Notes under the pieces: model-generated
Database searches by the model: none
Seen by the model: the letters and a program-made list of their open reading frames with translations, nothing else
Told to the model about the DNA's origin: nothing
Position numbers and translations under genes: made by a program
In this document: positions 1,528 to 64,000 of the stretch, piece after piece
Layout of the letters: every line of letters starts with the position of its first letter
Position numbering within the stretch: the first letter of the stretch is position 1
Source of the DNA: Chloroflexota bacterium
Lineage (GTDB): Bacteria; Chloroflexota; Dehalococcoidia; JACPPT01
Length of the DNA: 64,000 nucleotides
Reading direction: 5' to 3'
Assembly: GCA_016190815.1 (NCBI GenBank)
Contig: JACPPT010000058.1
Span: forward strand, 2,826-66,825

Positions 1528-3525
1528 TTGAGTGCTGAGCAACAAGTAACCGGGGGACACACCAGAAGAAGGCATCTGCTTGTTGCTGCGGGCTTGGGCC
1601 TGGCCTCTTTTGCTGTTTATTTTAGGACCCTTGCCCCTACGGTTTCCCTGGGCGATAGTGCGGAGTTTGCCACTGCGGCTTACTTTCTTGGAATTCCTCA
1701 CCCCACCGGTTACCCCCTCTACATGCTGCTCTCCAAGCTCTTTATAGTTGCCCTTCCCTTTGGAGATGTGGCTTATAGGGTGAATCTGCTTTCTGCCGTC
1801 TTTGCTGCTCTTTCCGTTGGCGTCCTTTACCTCCTCATAATCGCCATGACGTCTCGTCCCTGGGTGGCCGTGGTTTCAGTACTCAGCGTCGCCTTTGCCC
1901 ACAGTTTCTGGAGCAAGGCTGTGGTGGCCGATGTCTACAGTCTCCATGCTTTCTTCATGGTGATGTCTCTACTTGTGGTCTGGCAGTGGAGACAAACGGG
2001 TGAAAAGAAATACCTGTACATTCTGTCTGCAGTTCTTGGCTTGTCTCTAGCCCACCACGGTTTGACCCTTCTTATCATCCCTGCCCTTGTTTACGGTGTC
2101 GTCGCTCTTGGACCCTTCCGGAAGCTCAGACTAGGGCACGCTTTGTTCATGTCAGCAGTTGTCCTTCTGGGCCTTTCCTTCTATCTATACCTGCCCCTTC
2201 GCTATGCTCAGAACCCACCTATGAACTTTGCAGCGATGATAGATGTTGACCTCACCACCTTTAAAGGCTTTACTGGGTTTGTATCAGGCCGGATCTTTCG
2301 CACGGAGCTGACCTCCTTCACCACGGAAACAGTCGGGTCCCAGATGTCCCTGGCCCTGGCATCAGCCTTCGCCGACTATCTGGTGGTGGGAGCATTTTTG
2401 GTGGTCTTTGGTGCTTATGCCCATTACAAAAGGGACCGCCGGGGCTTCCTCTTTCTTCTTCTAGTCTTTCTTCCGAATCTGCTTTTTATATCTGCCTACC
2501 GTATAAGGGACATCTCAGACTACTTTATGTTTGTAGCTCTGCCCCTGAGCGTTTGGCTTGCAGAGGGCATGGGACTCCTCTCCGATGCCCTGGTCGGTTT
2601 CGCAGGTCGCCGCACCGAGACTGGTGGAGAGGCAGGGCGGCCTTTCTCGCTGGTTTTGTTGCTCTTTCTTCCCCTCGCCCTGTTCCTTTATAACTTTGGA
2701 GACGTTGATCGCAGCGGCTATCGGGTTGCCAAGGATTACTGCGATGAAAACCTGAGTGCCGTGCCCAGGGAAGCAGTGATTCTCACCAGATTCCCTGCTA
2801 GCAATCTCTGGTACTGCCACTTAGTGGATGGACTCAGACCAGACGTTACCGTGGTGGACCCAGGCCTTGCCACTTTAAGGGCCAGAGAGTTCTCCGTACC
2901 CCGCGGGGCCAGCACAGAGGAGCATATTGAAATAGTTGCCAGGGCAGAGCTTAGCGTGGTAGACGAGTATGCCAGTCGGCCTCTATTCGTGGTGAAATAT
3001 GACTCCGTTCTCGCAACCCGCTGGGCTTTCGAGGTTTACGGTGAGCTCTATAGGCTTCTTGACAAGGGAATGCCTCTGGTAGAGAGGACCCCGGAGGAGG
3101 CCTCGGAAGTGCGTCTTCCCATTTTCGATGGCTCCCTTCGTCTGGTGAAGGTTAGCCTGGAGCCGAGGGAGGTGAAGGCCGGGGATCTGCTTAGGGTTGT
3201 ATTGAGTTGGCGGGCGACGAAGGTGCCCGAGGTTGACCCATTCCTTACCTTCAGTTTTCGCAGGCGGTATGAGGGTGAGTACCGCTCCATCTCCTCTTCC
3301 TATCAGATGAAACAGGGCTACTACCTTTTGGGGCCAACCCGCTGGCCGGAAGGAAGCGTAGTTGTAGAGTACTATGACCTCCTGGTACTTTATGAGGCTG
3401 AGCCTGGCTCTTATGCTCTGGACCTCACCCTTGTGGGGGATGGGGTTGTTCTGCCCGTAGTAGCGGGTACAAGTGAAAGGGTATCCACTGGAGTTCGGCT
3501 GGGGGAGTTTCGGATCCTCGAATAA
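1528..3525 (+). CDS. DUF2723/TMEM260-like GT-C membrane glycosyltransferase
   Basis: 665 aa with a polytopic N-terminal half containing GDSAEFATAAYFLGIPHPTGYPLY, a signature I associate with DUF2723. TTG start; no in-frame ATG upstream. Confidence 0.65.
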   Translation: MSAEQQVTGGHTRRRHLLVAAGLGLASFAVYFRTLAPTVSLGDSAEFATAAYFLGIPHPTGYPLYMLLSKLFIVALPFGDVAYRVNLLSAVFAALSVGVLYLLIIAMTSRPWVAVVSVLSVAFAHSFWSKAVVADVYSLHAFFMVMSLLVVWQWRQTGEKKYLYILSAVLGLSLAHHGLTLLIIPALVYGVVALGPFRKLRLGHALFMSAVVLLGLSFYLYLPLRYAQNPPMNFAAMIDVDLTTFKGFTGFVSGRIFRTELTSFTTETVGSQMSLALASAFADYLVVGAFLVVFGAYAHYKRDRRGFLFLLLVFLPNLLFISAYRIRDISDYFMFVALPLSVWLAEGMGLLSDALVGFAGRRTETGGEAGRPFSLVLLLFLPLALFLYNFGDVDRSGYRVAKDYCDENLSAVPREAVILTRFPASNLWYCHLVDGLRPDVTVVDPGLATLRAREFSVPRGASTEEHIEIVARAELSVVDEYASRPLFVVKYDSVLATRWAFEVYGELYRLLDKGMPLVERTPEEASEVRLPIFDGSLRLVKVSLEPREVKAGDLLRVVLSWRATKVPEVDPFLTFSFRRRYEGEYRSISSSYQMKQGYYLLGPTRWPEGSVVVEYYDLLVLYEAEPGSYALDLTLVGDGVVLPVVAGTSERVSTGVRLGEFRILE

Positions 3526-3548
3526 GAAGCTCTTGAGGTGAGGTGGCT

Positions 3549-4823
3549 CTAGGGGAGATTTCCCTTAGCTTCTGACCACCAGCCCATGTATTCGCTGTTG
3601 CTGTAACCCATGGGGTCGAGGAGATGCCCTTTGTTTTCTGCATTGAGGACTTTCTCTCTGTTTATTCTAAGGTAGCGGCTTCCCGGAGAGAGGATACCCC
3701 TTTTGACACAATAATCGATGAGCTCCTGAAATCTCCTGTTGAACGAATGCTCCCTTAAGAGCCTTTCATCTACCCGAAAGCCCCGGGAAGCGTGCCCTTG
3801 AGCCTCTTGGAAAAGATGAGAGGCCAACTCGCTACTGTCCAGAACGCCGTTTTCACGGGCTTTTTCCAGAAGTTGCCGGCTCGCAAGGTTGCCCAGGGTT
3901 ATGGTGTGGAGTTCTAGGATCTTGTTTCTGGTCAAGCTGTCAAGGGCAACCTTGGAGAGGTCTCTTATACCCTTTGTTTCCTGGCCTATATTCAAAAAGA
4001 CGGTCATTCTGCCAGGAGTCATAAAATCGTACGTGATGTTTACCGGGAGAAGACGCATGTCGGCCTGCGATGTGGAGACTATACGGTGTAGCCCTTCCCT
4101 TATTCGAGAGAGGGAGCCATCCGGGCTGAGGGTGCCCTCGGGCATCATCATCAGGATGCCACCCCTGTCCAGAATGCGCGCGAAGAGGTCTAGCTGCGCT
4201 TCAATGGCTTCAGTGTGTATGGCTTTGTATTTCTTCAGATATGCTCTGTTTAGCATCAAGAGGCTTTCTTTCCTCTCCAGCAACGCTCGATACCTCCAGC
4301 CCAGGGCTTGGGCCAGCGTGAAATTTGCAGCGCTATTATTTCTGGAGCGTGTTCGGAATCTCTCTATCCACTGAGTGTTGAGGACATGACTTAGCTCTAT
4401 GTTGCCTTCCCTGGCATATACTTCTCTGAGAATCTCGATGACAAGCCTTTCGGGGATGCGGCGCATTGGGTAGGCACTGAAAGCCCTCATTATGCCTGTG
4501 AGGTTGATGGACCAAACCCAGCGGTCAATGGGCCAGGGTGGGTGTGAGTACCAGTGGAGAAAGCCTGCCACAAACAGGTCCTCCCGGGCAACAAAAGTGA
4601 TCTTTCTTCTTTCCTTCAGGCCCTGTCCCAGGTAGAGAGTTGGAGCTATGATGAGAACGTCGGAATCTCTTTTATGGTTTACTGTAATAATGGTTGCTGG
4701 AGAGCGAGTGTAATTCTCCATGCCTCTAACGTTTATGTTGTAGACCATCTTAGTGCCCATCTGGAAAAGAAAGGCCATGAAATCGTAGAACAGGCTTGGG
4801 TCATTAGATTGCTCTGCTTTCAC
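3549..4823 (-). CDS. PlsC/LPLAT-family acyltransferase with long C-terminal extension
   Basis: Hx4D acyltransferase motif (VNHKRDSDV) and PEGTLSPDG block; 424 aa. Confidence 0.6.
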   Translation of the reverse strand: MKAEQSNDPSLFYDFMAFLFQMGTKMVYNINVRGMENYTRSPATIITVNHKRDSDVLIIAPTLYLGQGLKERRKITFVAREDLFVAGFLHWYSHPPWPIDRWVWSINLTGIMRAFSAYPMRRIPERLVIEILREVYAREGNIELSHVLNTQWIERFRTRSRNNSAANFTLAQALGWRYRALLERKESLLMLNRAYLKKYKAIHTEAIEAQLDLFARILDRGGILMMMPEGTLSPDGSLSRIREGLHRIVSTSQADMRLLPVNITYDFMTPGRMTVFLNIGQETKGIRDLSKVALDSLTRNKILELHTITLGNLASRQLLEKARENGVLDSSELASHLFQEAQGHASRGFRVDERLLREHSFNRRFQELIDYCVKRGILSPGSRYLRINREKVLNAENKGHLLDPMGYSNSEYMGWWSEAKGNLP

Positions 4824-4940: not shown

Positions 4941-6614
4941 ATGCGTTCTGACCAGATAAAGAAGGGATTTGAGCGGGCTCCCCATCGAGCCTTGCTTAGA
5001 GCGGTGGGGGTGAAGGAAAAGGACTTCGATAAGCCCTTTATAGCGGTGTGCAACTCCTACATAGACATCATTCCCGGCCATGTTCATCTCCAGGAGTACG
5101 GTCGCATTGTCAAGGAGACCATTCGTGAGGCAGGAGGTGTGCCTTTTGAGTTCAACACCATAGGCGTTGATGATGGCATCGCTATGGGGCACATGGGGAT
5201 GAAGTATTCCCTCCCAAGCAGGGAGCTTATAGCCGATTCGGTGGAGACGATGGTGGCGGCCCACTGCTTCGATGGGATGGTCTGCATTCCCAACTGCGAC
5301 AAAATTGTTCCCGGTATGATTATGGCCGCCATGCGGCTTGACATACCGACGATTTTCGTAAGCGGAGGCCCGATGCCTGCTGGAAGGCTCTCTAACGGCA
5401 AGATTATAGACCTGGTGAACGTTTTCGAGGGTGTTGGTGCTTACAAAGCTGGAAGCCTGACCGAGTCTCAACTCAAAGAGCTTGAGGAGAAGGCCTGTCC
5501 CTCGTGCGGCTCGTGCGCCGGGCTTTTCACGGCTAACTCCATGAACTGTCTTACGGAGGCCCTGGGGCTGGCCCTGCCTGGAAATGGCACCGCCCAGGCG
5601 CTCAGCGAAGAGAGACAAGAGCTTCTTATTGAGGCTGCGCGCTTGATAGTAAAACTGGTTGAGATGAATCTAACACCTAGAAAAATAGTAACCCGTGAAG
5701 CCATCGATAATGCCTTTGCCCTGGATATGGCCATGGGAGGTTCGACTAACACGGTGCTCCATACCATCGCTGTTGCCCACGAGGGAGGCATTGATTATCC
5801 CCTGTCTCGTATTAATGAGATGGCAACTAAAGTCCCCAACATATGTAGAGTCTCTCCATCTTCTCAATACCACGTGGAGGACGTTCACAGGGCTGGAGGG
5901 GTGAGTGCCGTCCTCAAGGAGCTGAGCAAGAAGCCGGGTGTAATCGCCCTGGACCAGAGCACGGTTACTACGAGGACACTGGGCGAGAACATTGCCCATG
6001 CCAGGGTTACCGATTACGAGGTCATCCGACCTGTTGGAAAACCGTACAGCCCCAAAGGTGGTCTTGCCATCCTCTATGGGAACCTGGCACCAGGCGGAGC
6101 GGTGATAAAATCGGCGTCTGTTGATCCTGCTATGTGGAGGCACCGAGGGCCGGCCCGGGTTTTCAACTCTCAGGAGGAAGCCTGCTCAGCTATCCTTGAG
6201 GGAGCTGTTGAGGAGGGTAACGTAGTGGTCATACGCTACGAGGGACCCAAAGGCGGGCCTGGGATGCAGGAGATGCTCGCCCCGACAGCCAATATAGTGG
6301 GAATGGGTCTTGGGAGCAAGGTCGCCCTCATAACCGACGGGCGCTTCTCTGGAGGGACGCGGGGGGCTTGTATAGGTCATATCTCACCTGAAGCCGCCGA
6401 TGGAGGCCCAATAGCGACCCTACAGGATGGGGATGTAATCAGCATTGATCTGGAGGCCAATCGTCTGGATGTAGAGCTATCGGACTCTGAGATTAAGGGG
6501 CGGCTTGCCAAGCTCCCGCCTTTCAAATCTAAGGTCAAAAGCTCATACCTGAGGAGGTATGCCAGCATGGTTACCTCGGCCAGCACGGGAGCGGTGCTGA
6601 GAAACTCGGATTGA
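4941..6614 (+). CDS. ilvD: Dihydroxy-acid dehydratase
   Basis: 557 aa, full-length IlvD/Edd family by eye ([29 protein letters not shown]). Confidence 0.95.
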
Positions 6615-6724
6615 AGTTGGCTGTTGACCTCTTTCTTACTCCCTAGCACTTGTGGTATACTAATAGGTCGGGATTGGCTTTCAAAAAGACCATGTCCCAT
6701 ATTTTATGTGTGGAGGTCTATAGA

Positions 6725-6976
6725 ATGGCCTATGTGATTGCTGAGCCGTGCATAGGGGTCAAAGATAAGGCATGTGTGGACGTATGCCCTGTGGATTGCA
6801 TCCACGGCACCGATGAGGACCAGATGCTTTACATAGACCCCGACGAGTGCATAGATTGTGCAGCATGTGAGCCCGTTTGCCCAGTGACTGCCATCTTCGA
6901 GCTATCGGCGCTTCCTGAGAAATGGAAGCACTACACTCAGATAAACGCCGACTACTTTAAAGTCAAGAAAAAGTAG
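6725..6976 (+). CDS. 7Fe-type (3Fe-4S + 4Fe-4S) ferredoxin, FdxA-like
   Basis: MAYVIAEPCIGVKDKACVDVCP plus CIDCAACEPVCP cluster motifs. Start moved to ATG 6725 because homologues begin at M-x-YVI. Confidence 0.85.
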   Translation: MAYVIAEPCIGVKDKACVDVCPVDCIHGTDEDQMLYIDPDECIDCAACEPVCPVTAIFELSALPEKWKHYTQINADYFKVKKK

Positions 6977-7064: not shown

Positions 7065-9005
7065 ATGAGAAAAAGCCTGACCCATAAGATTATCTCCGAG
7101 CATTTGGTGTCCGGAGAGATGGTGCCTGGTGAAGAGATAGCCATATCTATAGATCAGACTCTTACCCAAGACGCCACCGGCACGATGGCGTATCTGCAAT
7201 TTGAGGCTATGGGCATACCTCGTGTCAAGACCAAGCTTTCTGTGAGCTATGTCGACCACAATATGCTTCAGACCGGTTTTGAGAACGCCGACGATCATCG
7301 CTTCCTTCAGAGCATAGCAGCCAAGTATGGCATATATTTTTCCAGGCCGGGCAATGGGATATGCCATCAGGTACACCTTGAGAGGTTCGCCATTCCGGGC
7401 CAGACTCTCCTCGGCTCCGATAGCCATACGCCGATGTCTGGTGCCCTGGGGATGCTCGCTATTGGCGCTGGTGGCCTTGATGTGGCTGTGGCCATGGGAG
7501 GTGGTCCGTATTACCTTGCGATGCCCAGAGTTACTTTGGTGCGCCTCAAAGGCAGGCTTCGGCCGTGGGTGTCAGCAAAAGACATTATTCTTGAGCTTTT
7601 AAGACGTCTCACCGTAAAAGGTGGGACAGGGAAGGTTATTGAGTACGGGGGGGATGGTGTGGCTTCCCTTGCAGTGCCCCAGCGGGGAACCATGACCAAC
7701 ATGGGTGCTGAGCTGGGGGCAACCACGTCGATTTTCCCCAGCGACGAGCAGTCCCGAATCTTTATGAGGGCCCAGGGCAGGGTTAAAAACTGGCGTCCCC
7801 TGAGCGCTGACCCGGATGCTAAATATGACGAGGTGGTTGAGATAGACCTTTCCTCCCTTGATCCCCTCATAGCAAAGCCCAGCAATCCTGACAATGTGGT
7901 TCCGCTGAAAGAGGTGGAGGGGATACCTGTGGCCCAGGTGGCGGTGGGGAGTTGCAATAACTCCTCATATGTGGACCTGGCCACGGTTGCCGCAGTGCTC
8001 AAGGGCAAGACCGTTTCTCCCCGGGTTAGCTTGGCGGTTACGCCGGGTTCCAGGCAGGTGTTCACAATGATAGCCAGAAGCGGTGTTTTGACTTCACTGG
8101 TTAGGTCTGGAGCCAGGATACTGGAGTCTTCATGTGGCCCGTGCATCGGAATGGGTCAGGCACCGCCATCGGATGGAGTATCCATTCGGACCTTCAACAG
8201 AAACTTCCCTGGTAGGAGCGGCACACCCAACGATAAGGTCTATCTGGCTAGCCCTGAAGTAGCGGCAGCCTCTGCTCTTACAGGTGTGATCACTGACCCC
8301 AGGAAGTTAGGCGCTCCCGTTGTAATTGAGCAGCCCAAGAGGTACTTGCTGGATGATTCCATGATAATACCACCCTCTCCCGAGCCCGAGAAGGTGGAGA
8401 TAATTCGAGGCCCCAATATCAAGCCTCTACCGATAGCCAGGCCTCCGGAGGATATTATCCGGGGCCAGGTGCTTATCAAGGTGGGCGATAATATCTCTAC
8501 CGACCACATAATGCCAGCCGGGGCAAAGGTACTGCCCCTTCGTTCCAATATACCAGCCATATCCGAGTATGTCTTCACGAGGGTTGATCAAGCTTTTCCG
8601 GAGCGAGCCAAGAAGCTTGGGGGAGGGGTAATAGTTGGAGGCGGAAACTACGGTCAGGGATCGAGTCGTGAACACGCTGCCCTGGCTCCTATGTATTTGG
8701 GAGTGAAGGCCGTTGTCGCCAGGTCCTTTGCCAGAATCCACTGGGCCAACCTTGTGAACTTCGGTATAGTACCCCTGACCTTTGTGAGCGATAAGGACTA
8801 CGAGCGGGTGGAGCAGGGGGACGAGCTGGAGATTCCCGATCTGCACGCTGCCATCCAGAAGAGCAAGCGGTTGAAGGTAAAGAACCTGACCAAGGGATCT
8901 GAGTTCGAGGCTGAACACGCGCTTTCTGAGCGCCAGGTGGGGATTCTTCTTGCTGGCGGTCTCCTTAATTATATCAGGGCCTCGGGCGCTGGGAGATCAG
9001 CCTAG
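7065..9005 (+). CDS. Aconitase-family hydro-lyase (about 650-aa fused LeuC/LeuD-like aconitate hydratase type)
   Basis: 646 aa. Fe-S ligand regions GSCNNSS and SCGPCIGMG; C-terminal swivel domain with GGGNYGQGSSREHA. Confidence 0.8.
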   Translation: MRKSLTHKIISEHLVSGEMVPGEEIAISIDQTLTQDATGTMAYLQFEAMGIPRVKTKLSVSYVDHNMLQTGFENADDHRFLQSIAAKYGIYFSRPGNGICHQVHLERFAIPGQTLLGSDSHTPMSGALGMLAIGAGGLDVAVAMGGGPYYLAMPRVTLVRLKGRLRPWVSAKDIILELLRRLTVKGGTGKVIEYGGDGVASLAVPQRGTMTNMGAELGATTSIFPSDEQSRIFMRAQGRVKNWRPLSADPDAKYDEVVEIDLSSLDPLIAKPSNPDNVVPLKEVEGIPVAQVAVGSCNNSSYVDLATVAAVLKGKTVSPRVSLAVTPGSRQVFTMIARSGVLTSLVRSGARILESSCGPCIGMGQAPPSDGVSIRTFNRNFPGRSGTPNDKVYLASPEVAAASALTGVITDPRKLGAPVVIEQPKRYLLDDSMIIPPSPEPEKVEIIRGPNIKPLPIARPPEDIIRGQVLIKVGDNISTDHIMPAGAKVLPLRSNIPAISEYVFTRVDQAFPERAKKLGGGVIVGGGNYGQGSSREHAALAPMYLGVKAVVARSFARIHWANLVNFGIVPLTFVSDKDYERVEQGDELEIPDLHAAIQKSKRLKVKNLTKGSEFEAEHALSERQVGILLAGGLLNYIRASGAGRSA

Positions 9006-58092: not shown

Positions 58093-59475
58093 ATGGTCCA
58101 CTATTCGGTCAATCCGCAAAAACACTTCTACAACTTCCAAGGTAAGATACCAACGGCAACCCTTGGAGCCCAACCTGCGCAGATACCTCCAGATTCACCC
58201 CACACGCAGCCGAAGTTAATAACGGATACTACCTTGAGAGACGGTGCCCAGGATCCACGTTTTGCCATATTCCCGAACAAGAGCAAGCTCAAATACTATG
58301 ACTTCCTTCATACGCTGGACAACGGCACAGGCGTTATCGAGGCGGTTGAAGTGTTCATCTACCAGGACAGAGACCTCTGGGTATTGGACAGACTCCTCGA
58401 ACGCGACTATGAGTATCCTAAGGTCACTACCTGGACCAGAGCGACCCCAAAAGATATAAAACTTCTCTCAGAGGTCTCCCAGGGTAGGATAAAGGAGACT
58501 GGGATGCTCGCCTCTTCCTCAGACCACCATATCTTCGATAAGCTGAGCTTCCGTAGCAAAGAGGAAGCTATCGAGAAGTATTTGGAGCCTATCCTCACGG
58601 CCTGCAAACTTGGCATAAGGCCTAGGGTGCATCTTGAGGATGCCACCAAGGCGGATATATACGGTTGGGTCATACCTTTTATGCGGCGTGTTATGGAGGA
58701 GACCAAAGGGCAAGCCTGTTTCCGAATCTGCGATACCGTTGGACTTGGCATCCCTGACCCCTTTGCTACAATCCCTTTTGGTGTACCACATCTAGTGTCC
58801 ACCCTTGCAAGGGAGGTCGGTGCCGAATTAGAATTCCACGGCCATAATGATTTCGGCCTAGCTACAGCCAACAGCATCGCTGCTTGGACATATGGCTGTA
58901 AGCGTGTCAATTGCGCTTTTGGTGGCCTCGGCGAGCGCACAGGCAATACTCCCCTTGAGCAGGTGATAGCGAACTACATTCGTCTATACGGCGACCCGGG
59001 CTTCAAACTGGATGTGCTGATAGAAATAGCAGAGCTCATAAACAGTGAGGTTGTACCCATACCTGAGAAGCAACCTGTTATTGGTACAGATATATTTACT
59101 ACCCAGGCGGGCCTACACCAGACAGGGGTGGAGCGTCACAGACGTGCCGAAGGTGGTCCTATTTACCTGCCGTACGACCCCGCAGTTGTAGGCAGGAATA
59201 GTATAGAGCTGAGCCGGGTAGGCAGCCTTGCTGGGATGGATGGCATCGTGTCGGTCCTTAATCGGGCTATTCAAGAGTCAACGGGTGAAGAAGGTCACTA
59301 CACAGTTGTCAGCAAGACGGTTAAGTACATTTACGATAGCGTGCACAAGGCTTACGACGGTACGTATGATGCTGCCCAAGGCCGGTATGTAAACTACCGC
59401 GCTACTTTCTTCGAGCCCCGAGAACTCCTGACTATAGCTAGGGAATACGAGGCGAAGAGAAGCTCAGGTTCCTGA
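58093..59475 (+). CDS. IPMS/homocitrate/citramalate-synthase-family (HMGL-like) acyl-CoA:2-oxoacid condensing enzyme
   Basis: TDTTLRDGAQ and EFHGHNDFGLATAN...GLGERTGNTPLEQV motifs. Start moved to ATG 58093 (GGGAGG SD). Confidence 0.8.
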   Translation: MVHYSVNPQKHFYNFQGKIPTATLGAQPAQIPPDSPHTQPKLITDTTLRDGAQDPRFAIFPNKSKLKYYDFLHTLDNGTGVIEAVEVFIYQDRDLWVLDRLLERDYEYPKVTTWTRATPKDIKLLSEVSQGRIKETGMLASSSDHHIFDKLSFRSKEEAIEKYLEPILTACKLGIRPRVHLEDATKADIYGWVIPFMRRVMEETKGQACFRICDTVGLGIPDPFATIPFGVPHLVSTLAREVGAELEFHGHNDFGLATANSIAAWTYGCKRVNCAFGGLGERTGNTPLEQVIANYIRLYGDPGFKLDVLIEIAELINSEVVPIPEKQPVIGTDIFTTQAGLHQTGVERHRRAEGGPIYLPYDPAVVGRNSIELSRVGSLAGMDGIVSVLNRAIQESTGEEGHYTVVSKTVKYIYDSVHKAYDGTYDAAQGRYVNYRATFFEPRELLTIAREYEAKRSSGS

Positions 59476-59693
59476 TGTCTATGGTTCCGACCTCCTCAAC
59501 TGTGTCATCAATGTATCTCAGCACGTCCAGCGTCCCACGCCCTCAATCTGGACAACGCCGACACTCGGGAGTCGGTGCACCAGAACTGGGACGACGATGT
59601 CTTTCAGGTGCCAGGGTAGGCTTCACCCTCGCTCCTGCCAGCAACCCCTCGTGTAAGTGCCCTTAAACGCTGTGGCTCTCTTCATCTCAGCAA

Positions 59694-59722
59694 TTGACAA
59701 CAACCAGCAATATCAGTAAACT
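59694..59722 (+). promoter_or_regulatory. Candidate sigma70-type promoter of the methylation module (TTGACA-17-TAAACT)
   Basis: TTGACA at 59694-59699, a 17-nt spacer, TAAACT at 59717-59722. GAGGAG SD sits 10 nt before ATG 59767. Confidence 0.4.
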
Positions 59723-59766
59723 ACTGCCAAACTCGGTTTTCTGGCTTCGAGAGGAGCGCCAACTGA

Positions 59767-59967
59767 ATGGACCCCAGTAATGCCGTCTTGACCATAGGTG
59801 AGCTTGCCGACTACTTGAAAATCCCTAAGTCAACGGTCTACAAGCTGGCCCAGCAGGGGAAGATTCCGGGGCAAAAGATCGGGCGTCATTGGCGCTTCTC
59901 AAAACAGGCAATCGACCAATGGCTAGAGCAGACGCACAAGCTTGGCAAGGGAACTGGCCGGCGATGA
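59767..59967 (+). CDS. Excisionase-family (MerR-like) helix-turn-helix DNA-binding protein
   Basis: LTIGELADYLKIPKSTVYKLAQQGKIPGQKIGRHWRFSKQAIDQWL, the classic excisionase-type HTH; 66 aa. Confidence 0.8.
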   Translation: MDPSNAVLTIGELADYLKIPKSTVYKLAQQGKIPGQKIGRHWRFSKQAIDQWLEQTHKLGKGTGRR

Positions 59968-60686
59968 AGAAATCCCGCGAAGGGAGAACGGCTCCCGAGG
60001 GGGAGTCTCCTTTGTTGTCCAGAGAATACTGGGCGGCCATTCGAGTGTGGTACAAGTCAGGGGGGCGACACCATTTACCCTGGCGCCAAAATGCCACCCC
60101 ATGGAACATCATGCTGGCAGAAACGCTTCTCCACCGGACACGCGCTGACGCTATTCAAGTTCTCTATCCTCGGATAACGGAAGAGTTCCCGGGCCCAGCC
60201 GCGATCGTCAAACGTGAGTCTGAATGGCTGGAGATGAGCAGATCTGCCGGTTTGACATGGCGTGCCGTTACCTTTGTCTCTGCCTGCAAGGAATTGTTGG
60301 CACAGCACGGGGGACTCGTGCCGAGTGAGCGCGAGGCTTTGTTGGCGCTTCCGGGGGTTGGGCACTACATAGCCAGCGCGGTTCGGTGTTTCGGTTTCGG
60401 TATCCCTGAGGTCATCGTGGATAGCAACACAATCAGGCTGTCAAGCCGCATTTCAGGTCGAGCGCTTGTGGCCTCTCGTCATCGTTCGAGAGAGGTACAG
60501 AAGGCGGTGGCAAGTCTTGGGGAAGTGGGTAGACCCTCCAGTCCGGCTGATAACTACGCACTCCTGGATCTGGCGACAAAAGTTTGCCGGATCACCAAGC
60601 CCGACCACTGGGGATGTCCAATTCGAGCGACTTGTGCAACGGGAAAGCACGTCATTGCAGGGAGCGCTTCCACCTCCGCCACTTGA
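59964..60686 (+). CDS. HhH-GPD superfamily DNA glycosylase (MutY/Mig-like)
   Basis: LPWRQNATPWNIMLAETLLHRT, HhH LLALPGVGHYIASAV, catalytic-Asp block VDSNTIRL, and an Fe-S loop reading CRITKPDHWGCPIRATC. The ATG overlaps the HTH stop (ATGA at 59964-59967). Confidence 0.75.
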   Translation: MKKSREGRTAPEGESPLLSREYWAAIRVWYKSGGRHHLPWRQNATPWNIMLAETLLHRTRADAIQVLYPRITEEFPGPAAIVKRESEWLEMSRSAGLTWRAVTFVSACKELLAQHGGLVPSEREALLALPGVGHYIASAVRCFGFGIPEVIVDSNTIRLSSRISGRALVASRHRSREVQKAVASLGEVGRPSSPADNYALLDLATKVCRITKPDHWGCPIRATCATGKHVIAGSASTSAT

Positions 60687-60750
60687 GAATTGCGTGAAGG
60701 AGATTTGCATGCGTATGGACTCATCGGCGCAAAGGAACACTGGGTGACAG

Positions 60751-62148
60751 GTGCAGGATGCCTCTGATTCTATCGCAGAAACTTGGTGCTCTGGAGGTGA
60801 TTATCAGCGGCATTCCTCATTTAGTCCGGAGGAATCTCCTGTGACTGCGAACGCCGAATCTACAGTAACTGCTGGGGCCACTGTTCGTGAGGCGGTGGCA
60901 ATGAATGCGGAACCTCCGAGGCTCAAGCTTCCAACCTTTAAGGGAAAACGGCTCAAGCTCGGCCGGCGTCCCGGTTCGCCAGATCCCGAGGACGTGGGAC
61001 TCTCAAGGCGATGGGTCGGCTCCCAGTCGAGGCCTTGGGCGGTAGATCTCTTCGCTGGCGCCGGAGGACTCAGCCTCGGGCTCAGAGATGCCGGCATCAA
61101 CGTGATCGCCGCTGCGGAGGAAGACCCCGTTGCTGCCGAAACACATGCCGCAAATCTCGGTGGGCTGACATGGGTGGGTGATCTGCGGGATTCATCGTCC
61201 TTCGTCTGCTTTCTTAGAGAAAGGGGCATCGACCAGGTGGATATCGTGGCAGGTGGCCCCCCTTGCCAGCCGTTTTCGAACGCCGGACTGGCAAAGATAC
61301 GTAGCCTCCCGAGGCGTCAGAATGATGAACGCACAGGACTCTGGAGAGCGTTCTTCGGGGTGATTGACGAACTTGCTCCAAGGGTGGTTCTGCTGGAGAA
61401 TGTTCCAGCCTTTGCCAGCATGCAAGAAGGGGCAATCCTGGCGGCCTTCGTGGGGGAACTGGAGGAGCGAGGATTCAACACGCAGGCCAGAGTGGTGGAG
61501 GCCTGGAAGTATGGCGTTCCACAACATCGCAAGCGCCTGTTCGTGGTTGCCACCCGTGAGGGTGAATCCTTTCGCTGGCCCCGACCAAGCAGGAAGGTGC
61601 CCACGTTGCGGGATGCGATCGGCGACCTCCCGGTCGTGGGGCCAGGCCACAGGGAGGAGGTTATAACCAGAGAGCGTCGTCCCAGCAGCCCACTGGCAAG
61701 ACGTCTGAGAAAGAACTTGGCCGAGACGGAGATTGGTACTGTCACCGACCACATCACCAGGGAGGTTCGCTCCGACGATGCGGAGATCTTCGCTCTCATG
61801 AGGCCAGGACAGACCTACGCGGATGTTCCGCCCGCGATGCGCCGATATCGGGCCGATATCTTCGATGACAAGTACACCAGATTGTCGTGGGACGCACTGA
61901 GCAGGTCGATCACTGCCCACATTGCTAAGGATGGCTACTGGTACATTCATCCAGAGCAGGACCGGACGCTGTCTGTCCGGGAGGCCGCCCGGATTCAGAC
62001 CTTTCCCGACTGGTTCAGGTTTGCCGGGCATCCATCGAACAGGTTGCGGCAGATCGGGAATGCTGTTCCACCGATGCTGGCCGCTGTACCTGATATTAGG
62101 CAAAGTTGCCTGATCATATTCGGGCGTCACGCAAGAGGAGCAACCTAA
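60751..62148 (+). CDS. DNA (cytosine-5)-methyltransferase
   Basis: Motif I DLFAGAGGLSLGL, IV GGPPCQPFS, VI LLENV, VIII QHRKRLFVVA, IX-X TFPDWFRF...RQIGNAVPP. The N-terminal about 100 aa is low-complexity. The start could be GTG 60751 or ATG 60901. Confidence 0.9.
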   Translation: MQDASDSIAETWCSGGDYQRHSSFSPEESPVTANAESTVTAGATVREAVAMNAEPPRLKLPTFKGKRLKLGRRPGSPDPEDVGLSRRWVGSQSRPWAVDLFAGAGGLSLGLRDAGINVIAAAEEDPVAAETHAANLGGLTWVGDLRDSSSFVCFLRERGIDQVDIVAGGPPCQPFSNAGLAKIRSLPRRQNDERTGLWRAFFGVIDELAPRVVLLENVPAFASMQEGAILAAFVGELEERGFNTQARVVEAWKYGVPQHRKRLFVVATREGESFRWPRPSRKVPTLRDAIGDLPVVGPGHREEVITRERRPSSPLARRLRKNLAETEIGTVTDHITREVRSDDAEIFALMRPGQTYADVPPAMRRYRADIFDDKYTRLSWDALSRSITAHIAKDGYWYIHPEQDRTLSVREAARIQTFPDWFRFAGHPSNRLRQIGNAVPPMLAAVPDIRQSCLIIFGRHARGAT

Positions 62149-62996
62149 TGCCCCAGGACTGGACGCGCGAGGAAGTGGAGGCTACAGTCGCCGACTACCT
62201 CGCCATGCTCAGCGCCGAGCACATAGGCCAGGAGTACAGCAAAGCCGAGCACCGACGCAACCTGGGCAAGCTCTTGAACAACCGGAGCGACGGGGCGATC
62301 GAACGGAAGCATCAGAACATCAGTGCCATCCTGATCGAACTTGGCCTGCCGTATGTCGACGGGTACAAGCCGCTTCGCAACTTTCAGCAGCTCCTCTTTG
62401 AGGTCATTGAAGATCGACTTCGCAATACTCCCCAACTCATCACTATGGTTGAGGAAGAGGTCCAGCGTCCCGCCGAACTACCGACAGTCGATGACATTCT
62501 GTCGGCCCTGGTGGAGCCACCGCGAAGGTCGACTCGGCCCAATTCCGCTTCGATACGGGTGTCCGACCGGCACATTCCCCTACCACGAATCAACTACCTG
62601 GCCATGGAGGCCGGCAACAGGTCACTAGGCCGGGCTGGCGAGGAATTCGTGGTGCGATTCGAGGTTGCCAGGCTTACAGCCGTACGGCAGGAACGACTTG
62701 CAGCACAGATAGAGCATGTTGCAGTGACCCGCGGTGATGGCGCGGGCTACGACGTACTCTCGTACGAGACGACAGGCCAAGAACGGCTCATCGAAGTGAA
62801 GACAACCTCCTACGGACCACAAACGCCCTTCTTCGTAACTAGAAACGAACTCGCGGTATCACATGATCGCGCGGCCGGGTACCATCTCTATCGCGTCTTC
62901 AGCTTTCGTAAGACGCCTCGGCTATTTCACAAACGAGGTAGGATTGACGAGCAGTTCGCACTCGCGCCCGAGCAATACCTTGCGCGGGTTGTGTGA
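62148..62996 (+). CDS. DUF3883-type PD-(D/E)xK nuclease-like protein (candidate restriction endonuclease)
   Basis: C-terminal GRAGEEFVVRFE...GYDVLSY...ERLIEVKTT...FFVTRNELAVS...YHLYRVF matches DUF3883 with a D...E-x-K motif. ATG 62148 overlaps the dcm stop (TAATG). Confidence 0.65.
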   Translation: MPQDWTREEVEATVADYLAMLSAEHIGQEYSKAEHRRNLGKLLNNRSDGAIERKHQNISAILIELGLPYVDGYKPLRNFQQLLFEVIEDRLRNTPQLITMVEEEVQRPAELPTVDDILSALVEPPRRSTRPNSASIRVSDRHIPLPRINYLAMEAGNRSLGRAGEEFVVRFEVARLTAVRQERLAAQIEHVAVTRGDGAGYDVLSYETTGQERLIEVKTTSYGPQTPFFVTRNELAVSHDRAAGYHLYRVFSFRKTPRLFHKRGRIDEQFALAPEQYLARVV

Positions 62997-63098
62997 CGCC
63001 TGATGAGCGCATGAACCTGATGAGCCGCCGTCGGTGGTGGGTTCGCTTTACTGATTCCTACCCAGGTCGGCTAATACGCGTATACAGGCCGGGCCAGA

Positions 63099-63142
63099 CG
63101 TAGCGGCGCCCCAACAGTATCGGGGCGCCGCTACGACCGCTT
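63099..63142 (+). terminator. Strong GC hairpin closing the methylation module (terminator-like)
   Basis: Perfect 14-bp stem CGTAGCGGCGCCCC (63099-63112) / GGGGCGCCGCTACG (63122-63135) with a 9-nt loop, followed by ACCGCTTTATT (weak U-tract). Confidence 0.6.
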
Positions 63143-63279
63143 TATTGACACCTATGTTCATTAGCAGTCCAAGCAGACATCAATAATTGCAGTAGCCGTA
63201 GTGCAATAATGAGCGTACTGCCCACCCCATCGGATTGCTGTAGAACCCGGCCAGTACGCCCCCCTGGGATCGTCGCGGC

Positions 63280-64000
63280 ATGGTTGTCGGCCACGTGCAG
63301 TCGGGTAAGACTGCAAACTATGCCGGTCTGATATGCAAGGCCGCCGATGCCGGGTACAAGCTGGTCGTCATCATTGCGGGAATCCACAACATACTACGGA
63401 ATCAGACGCAACTGAGGATCGACGAGAGTTTCGTCGGTCGCGATAGCGCCAGGCTGCTCTCGAAGAAGGATGATCGTTTCATCGGCGTGGGCCGCTTCGA
63501 TCAGACCCGGCGCCCCGTGACGTTCACGAACTCGGTCAAGGACTTCAGCAAAGCAATGGCCACCAGCGTCGGCCTCCCGCTCCAGAATCTCAACGAGCCC
63601 GCTGCGTTCGTGATCAAGAAGAACAGCACCACATTGAAGAATCTGCTCGAGTGGCTCAGGGAACACAGCGCCCGAGGAGGTGCTCGGACGATAGACGCCC
63701 CCATGCTCCTCATCGACGACGAAGCCGACAACGCGTCGATCAACATCCGACACGGCAAGGGGGAAGTGTCGCGCATCAACGGACAGATTCGAGACCTGCT
63801 TCACCTGTTTGAAAGAAGCTGCTATGTCGGATACACGGCGACACCCTTTGCCAACATCTTCATCGACCCTGATACCGATGACGAGATGCTAGGCGAGGAC
63901 CTGTTCCCTCGGAATTTCATCGTGAGCCTCGATCCGCCCTCCAATTACTTCGGCCCGGACAGGGTCTTCCTCCACGAATCCGAGAATTTCATCCGTCATA
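63280..64000 (+). CDS. Z1-domain-family P-loop protein, 3' end outside window (absent from ORF track); possibly 5'-truncated
   Basis: The plus-strand frame is open from 63244 to the window edge: MVVGHVQSGKTANYAGLICKAADAGYKLVVIIAGIHNILRNQTQ...LLIDDEADNASIN...CYVGYTATPFANIFIDP. In-frame TAG codons at 63199 and 63241 leave only 5 residues before the Walker A. Confidence 0.7.
   Translation, partial: MVVGHVQSGKTANYAGLICKAADAGYKLVVIIAGIHNILRNQTQLRIDESFVGRDSARLLSKKDDRFIGVGRFDQTRRPVTFTNSVKDFSKAMATSVGLPLQNLNEPAAFVIKKNSTTLKNLLEWLREHSARGGARTIDAPMLLIDDEADNASINIRHGKGEVSRINGQIRDLLHLFERSCYVGYTATPFANIFIDPDTDDEMLGEDLFPRNFIVSLDPPSNYFGPDRVFLHESENFIRH

Follow-up and report, generated by a model that had tools for sequence, protein, structure and literature searches.

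Miller et al. (2022, PMC9523054) described a putative defence system built around a Z1-domain protein, a DUF4420 nuclease and a cytosine methylase. In their account it is often accompanied by AIPR, a MORC-type ATPase, repair endonucleases and a regulator, and it is related to mzaABCDE (cited there from Gao et al. 2020); mza is not mentioned in the PADLOC paper. A C5 methylase can also be encoded beside a T/G mismatch glycosylase, as are M.MthTI and Mig.MthI on the Methanothermobacter plasmid pFV1. In modification-dependent enzymes, proven or predicted (YenY4I and the McaZI group), DUF3883 supplies the catalytic part; some of them are stand-alone genes beside or near C5 methylases (PMC6765204). 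Here we compare with these systems a locus at positions 59694-63142 of a 64,000-nucleotide (nt) stretch of contig JACPPT010000058.1 from a Chloroflexota bacterium (assembly GCA_016190815.1), hereafter the window. Genes for a helix-turn-helix (HTH) protein, a DNA glycosylase, the C5 cytosine methyltransferase Dcm and a DUF3883 protein (gene 4, or G4) follow one another in it on the same strand.

A first-pass annotation had described these genes as a compact, translationally coupled methylation module, with the DUF3883 protein as the candidate endonuclease belonging to Dcm. Our comparisons favor a different reading, to which we give a probability of about 70%: the region is a mosaic put together from three or more parts, namely Dcm, the HTH and glycosylase genes, and a DUF3883 cassette, and not one restriction-modification (R-M) module designed as an operon. 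The methylase and the glycosylase would be the modification arm of a decayed Mza-type locus (MutL-like ATPase, Z1, DUF4420, AIPR), and the DUF3883 protein most likely works independently of this Dcm. The patchwork is ordinary defence-island turnover, and all of its components belong to known kinds. The features of the region are listed below in window coordinates; lengths of proteins are in amino acids (aa), and protein assignments come from Pfam, NCBIfam, PADLOC and PDB matches.

59694..59722, forward strand: sigma-70-like site TTGACA-17-TAAACT, 10/12 positions matching, 45 nt upstream of the HTH start codon
59767..59967, forward strand: HTH protein of the excisionase family (HTH_17), 66 aa (PF12728, 7.6e-20)
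59964..60686, forward strand: Mig.MthI-like HhH-GPD / Fe-S DNA glycosylase, 240 aa (NCBIfam, PDB and PADLOC matches)
60895..62148, forward strand: Dcm, C5 cytosine methyltransferase whose C-terminal glycosylase domain is lost (PF00145, 2e-58)
62118..63041, forward strand: mobile cassette of ~0.93 kb, holding the DUF3883 / PDC-S36 gene and short conserved flanks (from identity with locus L083)
62148..62996, forward strand: gene 4, 282 aa, with a helical N-domain (~1-105), a variable linker and a PD-(D/E)XK domain (DUF3883 / NOV_C)
63019-63041: G-rich 3' flank of the cassette (in loci L083 and L003 at 4214-4236 and ~8840-8862, respectively)
63042..63260, no strand: junction DNA of ~220 nt between the cassette and the truncated mzaC, with no homology to L083, L088 or L173
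63244..64000, forward strand: mzaC (Z1-domain), 5'-truncated, first ATG at 63280, running past the window end

The mosaic is most directly seen at the insertion of the cassette, the breakpoints of which were located with blastn; L or P followed by digits denotes a fetched comparison locus or protein. The reference for the window was L173, an insert-free locus of ~81% identity in which a Dcm::glycosylase fusion (647 aa), MzaB (499 aa, HATPase_c_3) and MzaC follow in this order, and L001, a contig identical to the window, was used to extend past the right window edge. Window positions 60896-62081 correspond to L173 4715-5900 at 82% identity, homology then stops, and it is found again at 63261-65518 (L001-extended), which correspond to L173 8522-10782 at 80% (event B). 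In place of 2621 bp of L173, which comprise the C-terminal glycosylase domain of Dcm, a complete mzaB and ~128 mzaC codons, the window has 1179 bp (62082-63260) comprising the Dcm tail, the cassette and a hairpin segment.

A second replacement (event A) was found in L083, for which L088, insert-free and 95-96% identical to it, served as the reference. In L088 the glycosylase, Dcm (657 aa), MzaB (541 aa), MzaC (916 aa), MzaD and MzaE are intact; in L083, 1232 bp of this locus (L088 3515-4746) have given way to the cassette (3258-4236), and the C-terminal extension of Dcm and the ATPase part of MzaB have been removed. The G4 protein of L083 is 90% identical to that of the window. Since the cassettes share ~90% nucleotide identity and the Dcm bodies only 45-50%, the same ~0.93-kb unit lies in two divergent Mza loci as the result of separate events. 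Both insertions sit directly after Dcm motif X, and their right breakpoints differ, lying in mzaB in L083 and in mzaC in the window. We propose that the DUF3883 gene arrived on this cassette and that the cassette, together with ~220 nt of unrelated DNA, replaced 2.6 kb containing the Dcm C-terminal domain, mzaB and the first ~128 mzaC codons. Two candidate remnants of mzaB were rejected. A 352-aa open reading frame (ORF) after the cassette of L083, considered as a native short MzaB, starts in the cassette flank and matches MzaB at positions 157-488 of 500 only, and the stretch RMNLMSRR after gene 4 of the window is cassette flank.

The insertion also bears on the stop/start overlaps that the first-pass annotation had taken as translational coupling. 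Both overlaps are present, as are the four ORFs and their domain calls; in the ATGA at 59964-59967 the HTH stop overlaps the glycosylase start. The Dcm ORF is open from 60751 and stops at 62146-62148; its sequence is native to ~62081, and its last 22 codons are the 5' flank of the cassette. Because the truncated Dcm reads into this flank, the TAATG at 62146-62150, where its stop overlaps the start of gene 4, is a junction artefact; at the same junction in L083 the two genes are 35 nt apart. At its other end, Dcm would have 435 aa from GTG 60841 and 417 aa from GTG 60895. The latter is most likely the start, because homology with L173 begins at the Dcm start of that locus, and it leaves a gap of 208 nt after the glycosylase, so that tight coupling does not run through all four genes.

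The homology with L173 thus starts exactly at the Dcm start codon, upstream of which L173 carries an unrelated 531-aa gene, and for this reason the HTH-glycosylase pair appears to be a further, separately joined piece upstream of Dcm. All four genes occur together only in contigs identical to the window, which is largely the outcome that the first-pass annotation had itself named as refuting its reading. The acquired island of the earlier description is supported. The GC content of the module, the calculation of which had been recommended, is 58.2% against 53.1 ± 1.5% in windows of the same size (z = 3.4; 0/558 reach 58.2%), which supports a foreign origin, and the non-coding spacer on its left, given as ~290 nt, measures 291 nt (59476-59766). 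A search of this spacer for inverted and direct repeats returned a single weak 14-nt direct repeat. No tRNA was found in a scan of the whole window, which therefore offers no attachment-site evidence, and an Rfam scan of 59000-64000 (E <= 0.1) gave no match. In L083, a tRNA-Gly(TCC) at 1020-1094 precedes the related Mza island by ~240 nt, a type of site that is typical for island integration.

To the right of the cassette, the junction DNA holds a hairpin in which 63099-63112 pairs with 63122-63135 (perfect 14-bp stem, 9-nt loop); for the 81 nt around it the folding energy is -35.5 kcal/mol (z = -3.7). The window contains no second copy of the hairpin, and among the fetched loci it is confined to contigs of the same organism. 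It had been proposed as a strong terminal hairpin closing the module; the perfect stem is there, but it has no adjacent T-run and was not called by the terminator scan. The G-rich 3' flank of the cassette, directly after the stop (AGCCGCGGTGGGGTGGGGCTTTGG in L083), is kept in three close cassette copies despite unrelated surroundings; the flank in the window is more diverged and contains a terminator-like match at 63025-63040. No flank motif was conserved across 79 PDC-S36 loci, and flank conservation is limited to close Chloroflexi copies.

The locus that received the cassette can be recognized from what follows it. The ORF at the window end matches MzaC from profile position 124 of 806 (NCBIfam) or 140 of 952 (PADLOC) and aligns to L088 MzaC from residue 126, the homology reaching 12 codons upstream of the ATG to a stop codon there; ~125-137 N-terminal residues of a full-length MzaC are absent. 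In L001 this mzaC ORF has 775 aa and is followed by mzaD (DUF4420; MzaD match 4.4e-19). No mzaB sequence, which would encode the MutL-like GHKL ATPase, was found in 62997-63260; mzaB is present in L088 and L173. With MzaC and MzaD homologues downstream in the window lineage, and with the Z1-DUF4420-methylase core already described, Dcm and the glycosylase appear to head an Mza-type locus. Close relatives hold the full set of Dcm, MzaB, MzaC, MzaD and MzaE, and the systems of Miller et al. likewise associate with DNA-repair endonucleases and a regulator. The window departs from both described systems in that it lacks mzaB, its mzaC is 5'-truncated, mzaE was not seen up to the end of L001 at mzaD, a Mig-like glycosylase stands in the place of Vsr, and a nuclease cassette of foreign origin interrupts the locus. 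The effector arm of Mza is probably dead, and what remains would be an orphan methylase, a repair glycosylase and an unrelated stand-alone nuclease. In L083 and L084 mzaC is split into 99 aa + 779 aa (L083 5247-5546 and 5660-7999), and the 96% identical L088 5757-8507 is one 916-aa gene; the split reflects either a frameshift in the assembly or decay that went on once the cassette was in place.

Several observations weigh against this account. The cassette stands immediately after Dcm in two divergent Mza loci (the window, and L083 with L089). Among 80 genomes from GTDB in which the neighborhood of gene 4 homologues was inspected, with a radius of 8 kb for Dcm, Dcm and/or Vsr lie within 8 kb in 11, from several phyla, and are directly adjacent in ~6, a proximity well above random by our own rough estimate; some link of gene 4 with cytosine methylation may therefore exist. 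Residual Mza function is possible, since mzaD is intact and the truncated mzaC still has an ATG in frame and an undamaged Walker A motif; L001 ends at mzaD, which places the mzaE position beyond the readable sequence.

The family to which gene 4 belongs speaks for an independent nuclease. PADLOC profile PDC-S36, a single-gene phage-defence candidate, matches it over its full length (1.3e-102, positions 5-279 of 280), with no structural difference; a literature search for PDC-S36 returned no paper from the library covered. PF13020 (NOV_C/DUF3883) matches residues 165-260 at 1.5e-20, and PD-T4-1 (PADLOC) matches residues 141-258 at 5e-19. The D...E-x-K motif noted in the first-pass annotation is intact, with D197, D202, E216 and K218 invariant in 24 homologues. 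An unassigned N-terminal part of ~190 aa had also been reported; such a part exists, but its length is ~160 aa, made up of a conserved helical domain of ~105 aa and a linker. The family is very large (7,995/8,000 scored candidates at E <= 1e-5), with proteins of ~282 aa that are 50-60% identical across phyla. In its alignment, a conserved N-domain with DW..EVEATV.DY..ML, RS.GAIERKHQNISA and GYKP..NYQ is followed by a variable linker and by a nuclease core with GDG.G.D ... E.KTT. An AlphaFold2 model of gene 4 has a mean pLDDT (predicted local distance difference test) of 69.5, and the fold search made with it gave only weak PD-(D/E)XK matches (SPARDA effector nuclease, Hjc, Type II enzymes; best E = 0.0095). 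The N-domain had no significant fold match, and Pfam at E <= 5 gave nothing meaningful for it. A search with this domain alone recovered 2,476 representative clusters, most of them sharing this architecture at 283 aa. Other architectures are an EVE modified-base reader followed by the N-domain and DUF3883 (P0352), DUF6416 with the core (P0318), and the N-domain joined to a McrA-type HNH nuclease (P0328; 6GHC, 1e-5).

The neighborhoods of gene 4 homologues are those of a gene that travels alone. A Dcm lies within 8 kb in 8/80 genomes and is absent from that distance in the other 72; a glycosylase or HTH homologue was near in 0/80, and no Mza gene was near in 79/80. The 499 proteins encoded within four genes of the homologues fall into 456 clusters, with no conserved neighbor. 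Adjoining genes are mixed, including housekeeping genes (MutS, topoisomerase) and toxin-antitoxin or defence genes (Fic/SoFic, AbiEi, a Type I endonuclease, other PDC candidates), and the closest copy outside an Mza locus, which is 81% identical (L003), sits between a Rieske oxygenase and a LUD/Fe-S gene. Where Dcm or Vsr is linked to a PDC-S36 gene (L021, L026, L046, L069, L082, L066, L020, L008 and L019, around position 8000), the arrangements are divergent, convergent or interleaved, and in L082 the gene lies between Dcm and Vsr on the opposite strand.

A relative with the same N-domain and intact catalytic motifs, WP_000080860.1 (378 aa; full-length identity with gene 4, 43%), is carried by 1,178 PLSDB plasmids, of which 868 are conjugative, in Escherichia, Klebsiella, Salmonella, Acinetobacter, Pseudomonas and other genera; 469 of the 1,178 records are from E. 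coli. Two plasmids were inspected (NZ_CP059131.1, L167, and NC_021734.1, L168; gene at 5713-6849 in each). In neither is there an adjacent annotated methylase, and the gene adjoins aac(3)-IId and an 'AAA family ATPase' or sits between IS26 copies.

We hypothesize that gene 4 encodes a conditional PD-(D/E)XK DNA nuclease, Type IV-like or infection-triggered, whose N-terminal helical domain would sense or target non-self DNA. In a narrower version, it would be a Type IV-like, modification-dependent nuclease that senses foreign cytosine modifications in non-host contexts. This version is about how gene 4 acts and does not conflict with the mosaic history; we regard it as possible, at odds clearly short of even. 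Gene 4 shares its C-terminal PD-(D/E)XK (DUF3883) domain with YenY4I and the McaZI group (PMC6765204), the modification-dependent enzymes introduced above, and with PD-T4-1 / TmtA. Sensing would also suit an N-domain that recurs in 2,476 representative clusters, follows an EVE reader in P0352 and is joined to a McrA-type HNH in P0328, and the frequency of Dcm and Vsr near gene 4 homologues. Unlike YenY4I, McaZI and PD-T4-1, however, gene 4 has no PUA, EVE or DUF3427 reader and no ATPase domain but a helical N-domain of its own; Pfam recognizes no reader domain in it, and the N-domain lacks a significant fold match. The plasmid relative sets a further limit. Most E. coli are Dcm+ and Dam+, and with 469 of its 1,178 records in this species the relative cannot have common 5-methylcytosine (5mC) or 6-methyladenine (6mA) contexts as its target.

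A quite unlikely alternative is that the locus is a working hybrid, in which the DUF3883 nuclease has replaced MzaB and the N-terminus of MzaC and acts with the truncated MzaC, MzaD and Dcm. The order Dcm, DUF3883 gene, MzaC, MzaD is indeed kept in the window, L083, L084 and L089, and the truncated mzaC retains its start codon and Walker A. A hybrid is hard to reconcile with right-hand breakpoints that fall in different genes, mzaB in L083 and mzaC in the window, with the split of L083 mzaC into 99 aa and 779 aa, a pattern of progressive decay, and with a DUF3883 gene that has no Mza gene near it in 79/80 genomes.

Little can be said for the Type II-like R-M unit of the first-pass annotation, in which the DUF3883 protein would cut unmethylated sites, Dcm would protect them, the glycosylase would repair and the HTH protein would control; we consider it very unlikely. 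Same-strand adjacency with a stop/start overlap, the intact D...ExK motif, Dcm and/or Vsr near the DUF3883 gene in 11/80 genomes, and a cassette adjoining Dcm in two divergent loci speak for such a unit, and an archaeal R-M survey lists a DUF3883 group as presumed Type II endonuclease (PMC10609329). The methyltransferase itself has the complete motif set of a Type II system, with DLFAGAGG, GGPPCQPFS, ENV, QHRKR and GNAVPP (motifs I, IV, VI, VIII and X) all in the translation, as had been noted. Linkage of endonuclease and methylase across homologues, on the other hand, does not hold: 72/80 family members have no Dcm in 8 kb and there is no conserved partner, the family being 50-60% identical across phyla and standing beside Dcm genes only distantly related to that of the window. 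The overlap was made by Dcm reading into the cassette flank and is replaced by 35 nt in L083, and the insertion destroyed part of Dcm. The assignment of gene 4 as cognate endonuclease is not supported, gene 4 being a full-length member of the single-gene candidate PDC-S36 whose cassette truncated Dcm and whose L003 copy lies between metabolic genes. A relative carried by 1,178 plasmids across genera, with no adjacent annotated methylase in the two inspected, points the same way, as a classical endonuclease restrained by methylation would kill new hosts and is unlikely to survive such a plasmid lifestyle.

Nor does the HTH protein show the usual marks of a controller (C) protein, a role that it may or may not have. 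It matches TIGR01764 at 69.6 bits, above the cut-off, and MAD1 at 71 bits, under its cut-off of 80 (NCBIfam); its domain is HTH_17, not of the Xre type. An HTH homologue upstream of the glycosylase was found only in L091 (glycosylase 73% identical) and in contigs identical to the window, and no operator-like inverted repeat (C-box) was found in 59470-59790. The two hexamers of the promoter that had been predicted before this gene exist, but three such sites occur in the region against 2.1 expected by chance, which is not above chance. The HTH protein is probably a local regulator of the HTH-glycosylase pair. In L088 the extended glycosylase ORF opens with an unrelated upstream segment that by eye resembles a ribbon-helix-helix motif.

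For the glycosylase, the first-pass reading is supported by comparison. Its placement in the HhH-GPD superfamily is upheld by NCBIfam, PDB and PADLOC matches, but Pfam, where PF00730 had been suggested as the check, did not make the call and gave only HHH at 3.6e-4, below threshold. The PADLOC 'Type II nicking endonuclease' profile (221 positions) matches it at 1e-20; the NCBIfam scores are 115 bits for mutY (cut-off 286) and 53 bits for nth (cut-off 212). Its family (191 matches at E <= 1e-10) consists of proteins of ~225-250 aa, all lacking the MutY C-terminal domain. The best solved match of the family profile is Mig.MthI (1KEA; 2.3e-39, 138 bits), followed by MutY (~1e-35, 126 bits); a search with the single sequence gives 84 bits for MutY catalytic domains and 76 bits for Mig. 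pFV1 was not among the matches listed in the plasmid search, and the comparison with Mig was made through 1KEA.

The catalytic residues E53 and D153 and also Y135 are invariant in the family, with Tyr135 at the position of the EndoIII lysine; having no Lys nucleophile, the enzyme is of the monofunctional HhH-GPD type. The positions that discriminate Mig from MutY were taken from PMC2714593 and read off the family and profile alignments. Three are of Mig type: A61 (Mig A50, MutY V45), R58 (Mig R47) and the invariant Y135 (Mig Y126). At the position of E. coli MutY Q25 there is R41, Arg as in Mig but also as in Bacillus MutY; Y198 (Mig L187, MutY Q182) is of neither type, and L38 (Mig F27, MutY L22) is of MutY type. 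Mig.MthI and the window enzyme thus have in common a small size (~220-240 aa), the HhH-GPD / Fe-S fold without the MutY C-terminal domain, the catalytic Asp and Glu, the Tyr (Y126), Ala (A50) and Arg (R47), and a place beside Dcm, at ~30-35% identity by our own reading of the alignment. They differ in Tyr for Leu at L187, Leu for Phe at F27, and His at one Fe-S ligand, and the family of the window enzyme is bacterial, not archaeal, and often lies in Mza-type loci or is fused to Dcm. The His is residue 215 (~60606-60608) in the pattern C-x6-H-x2-C-x5-C, where 25/25 other aligned homologues have Cys; it could reflect a 3Cys-1His cluster or relaxed selection.

Genomic context ties this family to Dcm. 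In 80 metagenome loci with a glycosylase homologue, Dcm lies within 400 bp in 46, and in 24 of the 39 that have enough flank (>=1.2 kb on both sides); Mza genes are present at 7 of the 80. The association extends to fusion. Among the best Dcm homologues, 117/120 have 560-690 aa, many with precomputed HhH, EndoIII Fe-S or HhH-GPD matches C-terminal to the methylase domain, and the window Dcm is 82-85% identical in protein sequence to proteins of 647-689 aa. A fusion of 647 aa is found in L173 (4714-6657), and L169 (1766-3709) holds another close Dcm homologue; the C-terminal domain in L173 matches the glycosylase family at 2.3e-44 and retains every catalytic and Fe-S residue. Close Dcm homologues, including P0392-P0510, appear to form a large family in which a methylase is fused to a repair domain. 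One of them, P0392 (85% identical), lies in a phage-like element without Mza genes. In L088 (3507-4217) the Dcm-fused glycosylase-like domain is degenerate, with neither the catalytic Asp nor the HhH motif; its Fe-S loop is still there (score of the domain against the family profile, 32.6 bits), and an intact separate glycosylase gene lies upstream. This suggests that a duplication or replacement was followed by loss of function in the fused domain.

The proposal that this enzyme substitutes for Vsr is thus supported by a Mig-like family, Mig-type residues, Dcm adjacency in 46/80 loci and Dcm fusions. We predict that the glycosylase is the T:G / U:G mismatch repair partner of Dcm, its specificity being deduced from these comparisons. 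Dcm would methylate cytosine at C5 and would descend from a family with a C-terminal Mig-like glycosylase domain that heads an Mza-type operon, and the glycosylase would excise a T or U that deamination of 5-methylcytosine or cytosine has left opposite G, the job done elsewhere by Vsr. That it is an ordinary housekeeping MutY or EndoIII beside Dcm by chance is most unlikely: the single-sequence search slightly favors MutY catalytic domains (84 vs 76 bits) and several sources call the homologues 'A/G-specific adenine glycosylase', but the scores are far under the NCBIfam cut-offs for mutY and nth, the MutY C-terminal domain is lacking, the family profile prefers Mig, Ala aligns with MutY V45 and Tyr, in place of Gln, with Q182, and adjacency and fusion to Dcm are systematic.

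The claim of a new compact R-M design does not hold for this locus. Adjacency and a stop/start overlap here resulted from a recent cassette replacement, which calls for caution with operon-based inference in defence islands, and two pairwise comparisons with insert-free loci show how defence loci are overwritten and decay. By adjacency and fusion, the comparative evidence makes Mig-like glycosylases systematic partners of bacterial C5 methylases, which can stand in for Vsr in Mza-type systems. PDC-S36 is very widespread and highly conserved, and a relative resides on many plasmids that bear resistance genes. As a tentative proposal, more doubtful than probable, PDC-S36 may be a large class of stand-alone defence nucleases whose N-domain is a new sensor of foreign or modified DNA, and whose cassette lands preferentially beside cytosine-methylase modules, overwriting their effectors. 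If this is true, the class would include the 43%-identical relative on >1,100 plasmids, mostly of clinical Gram-negative genera, and its N-domain sensor would be common to the EVE-fused and McrA-HNH-fused relatives.

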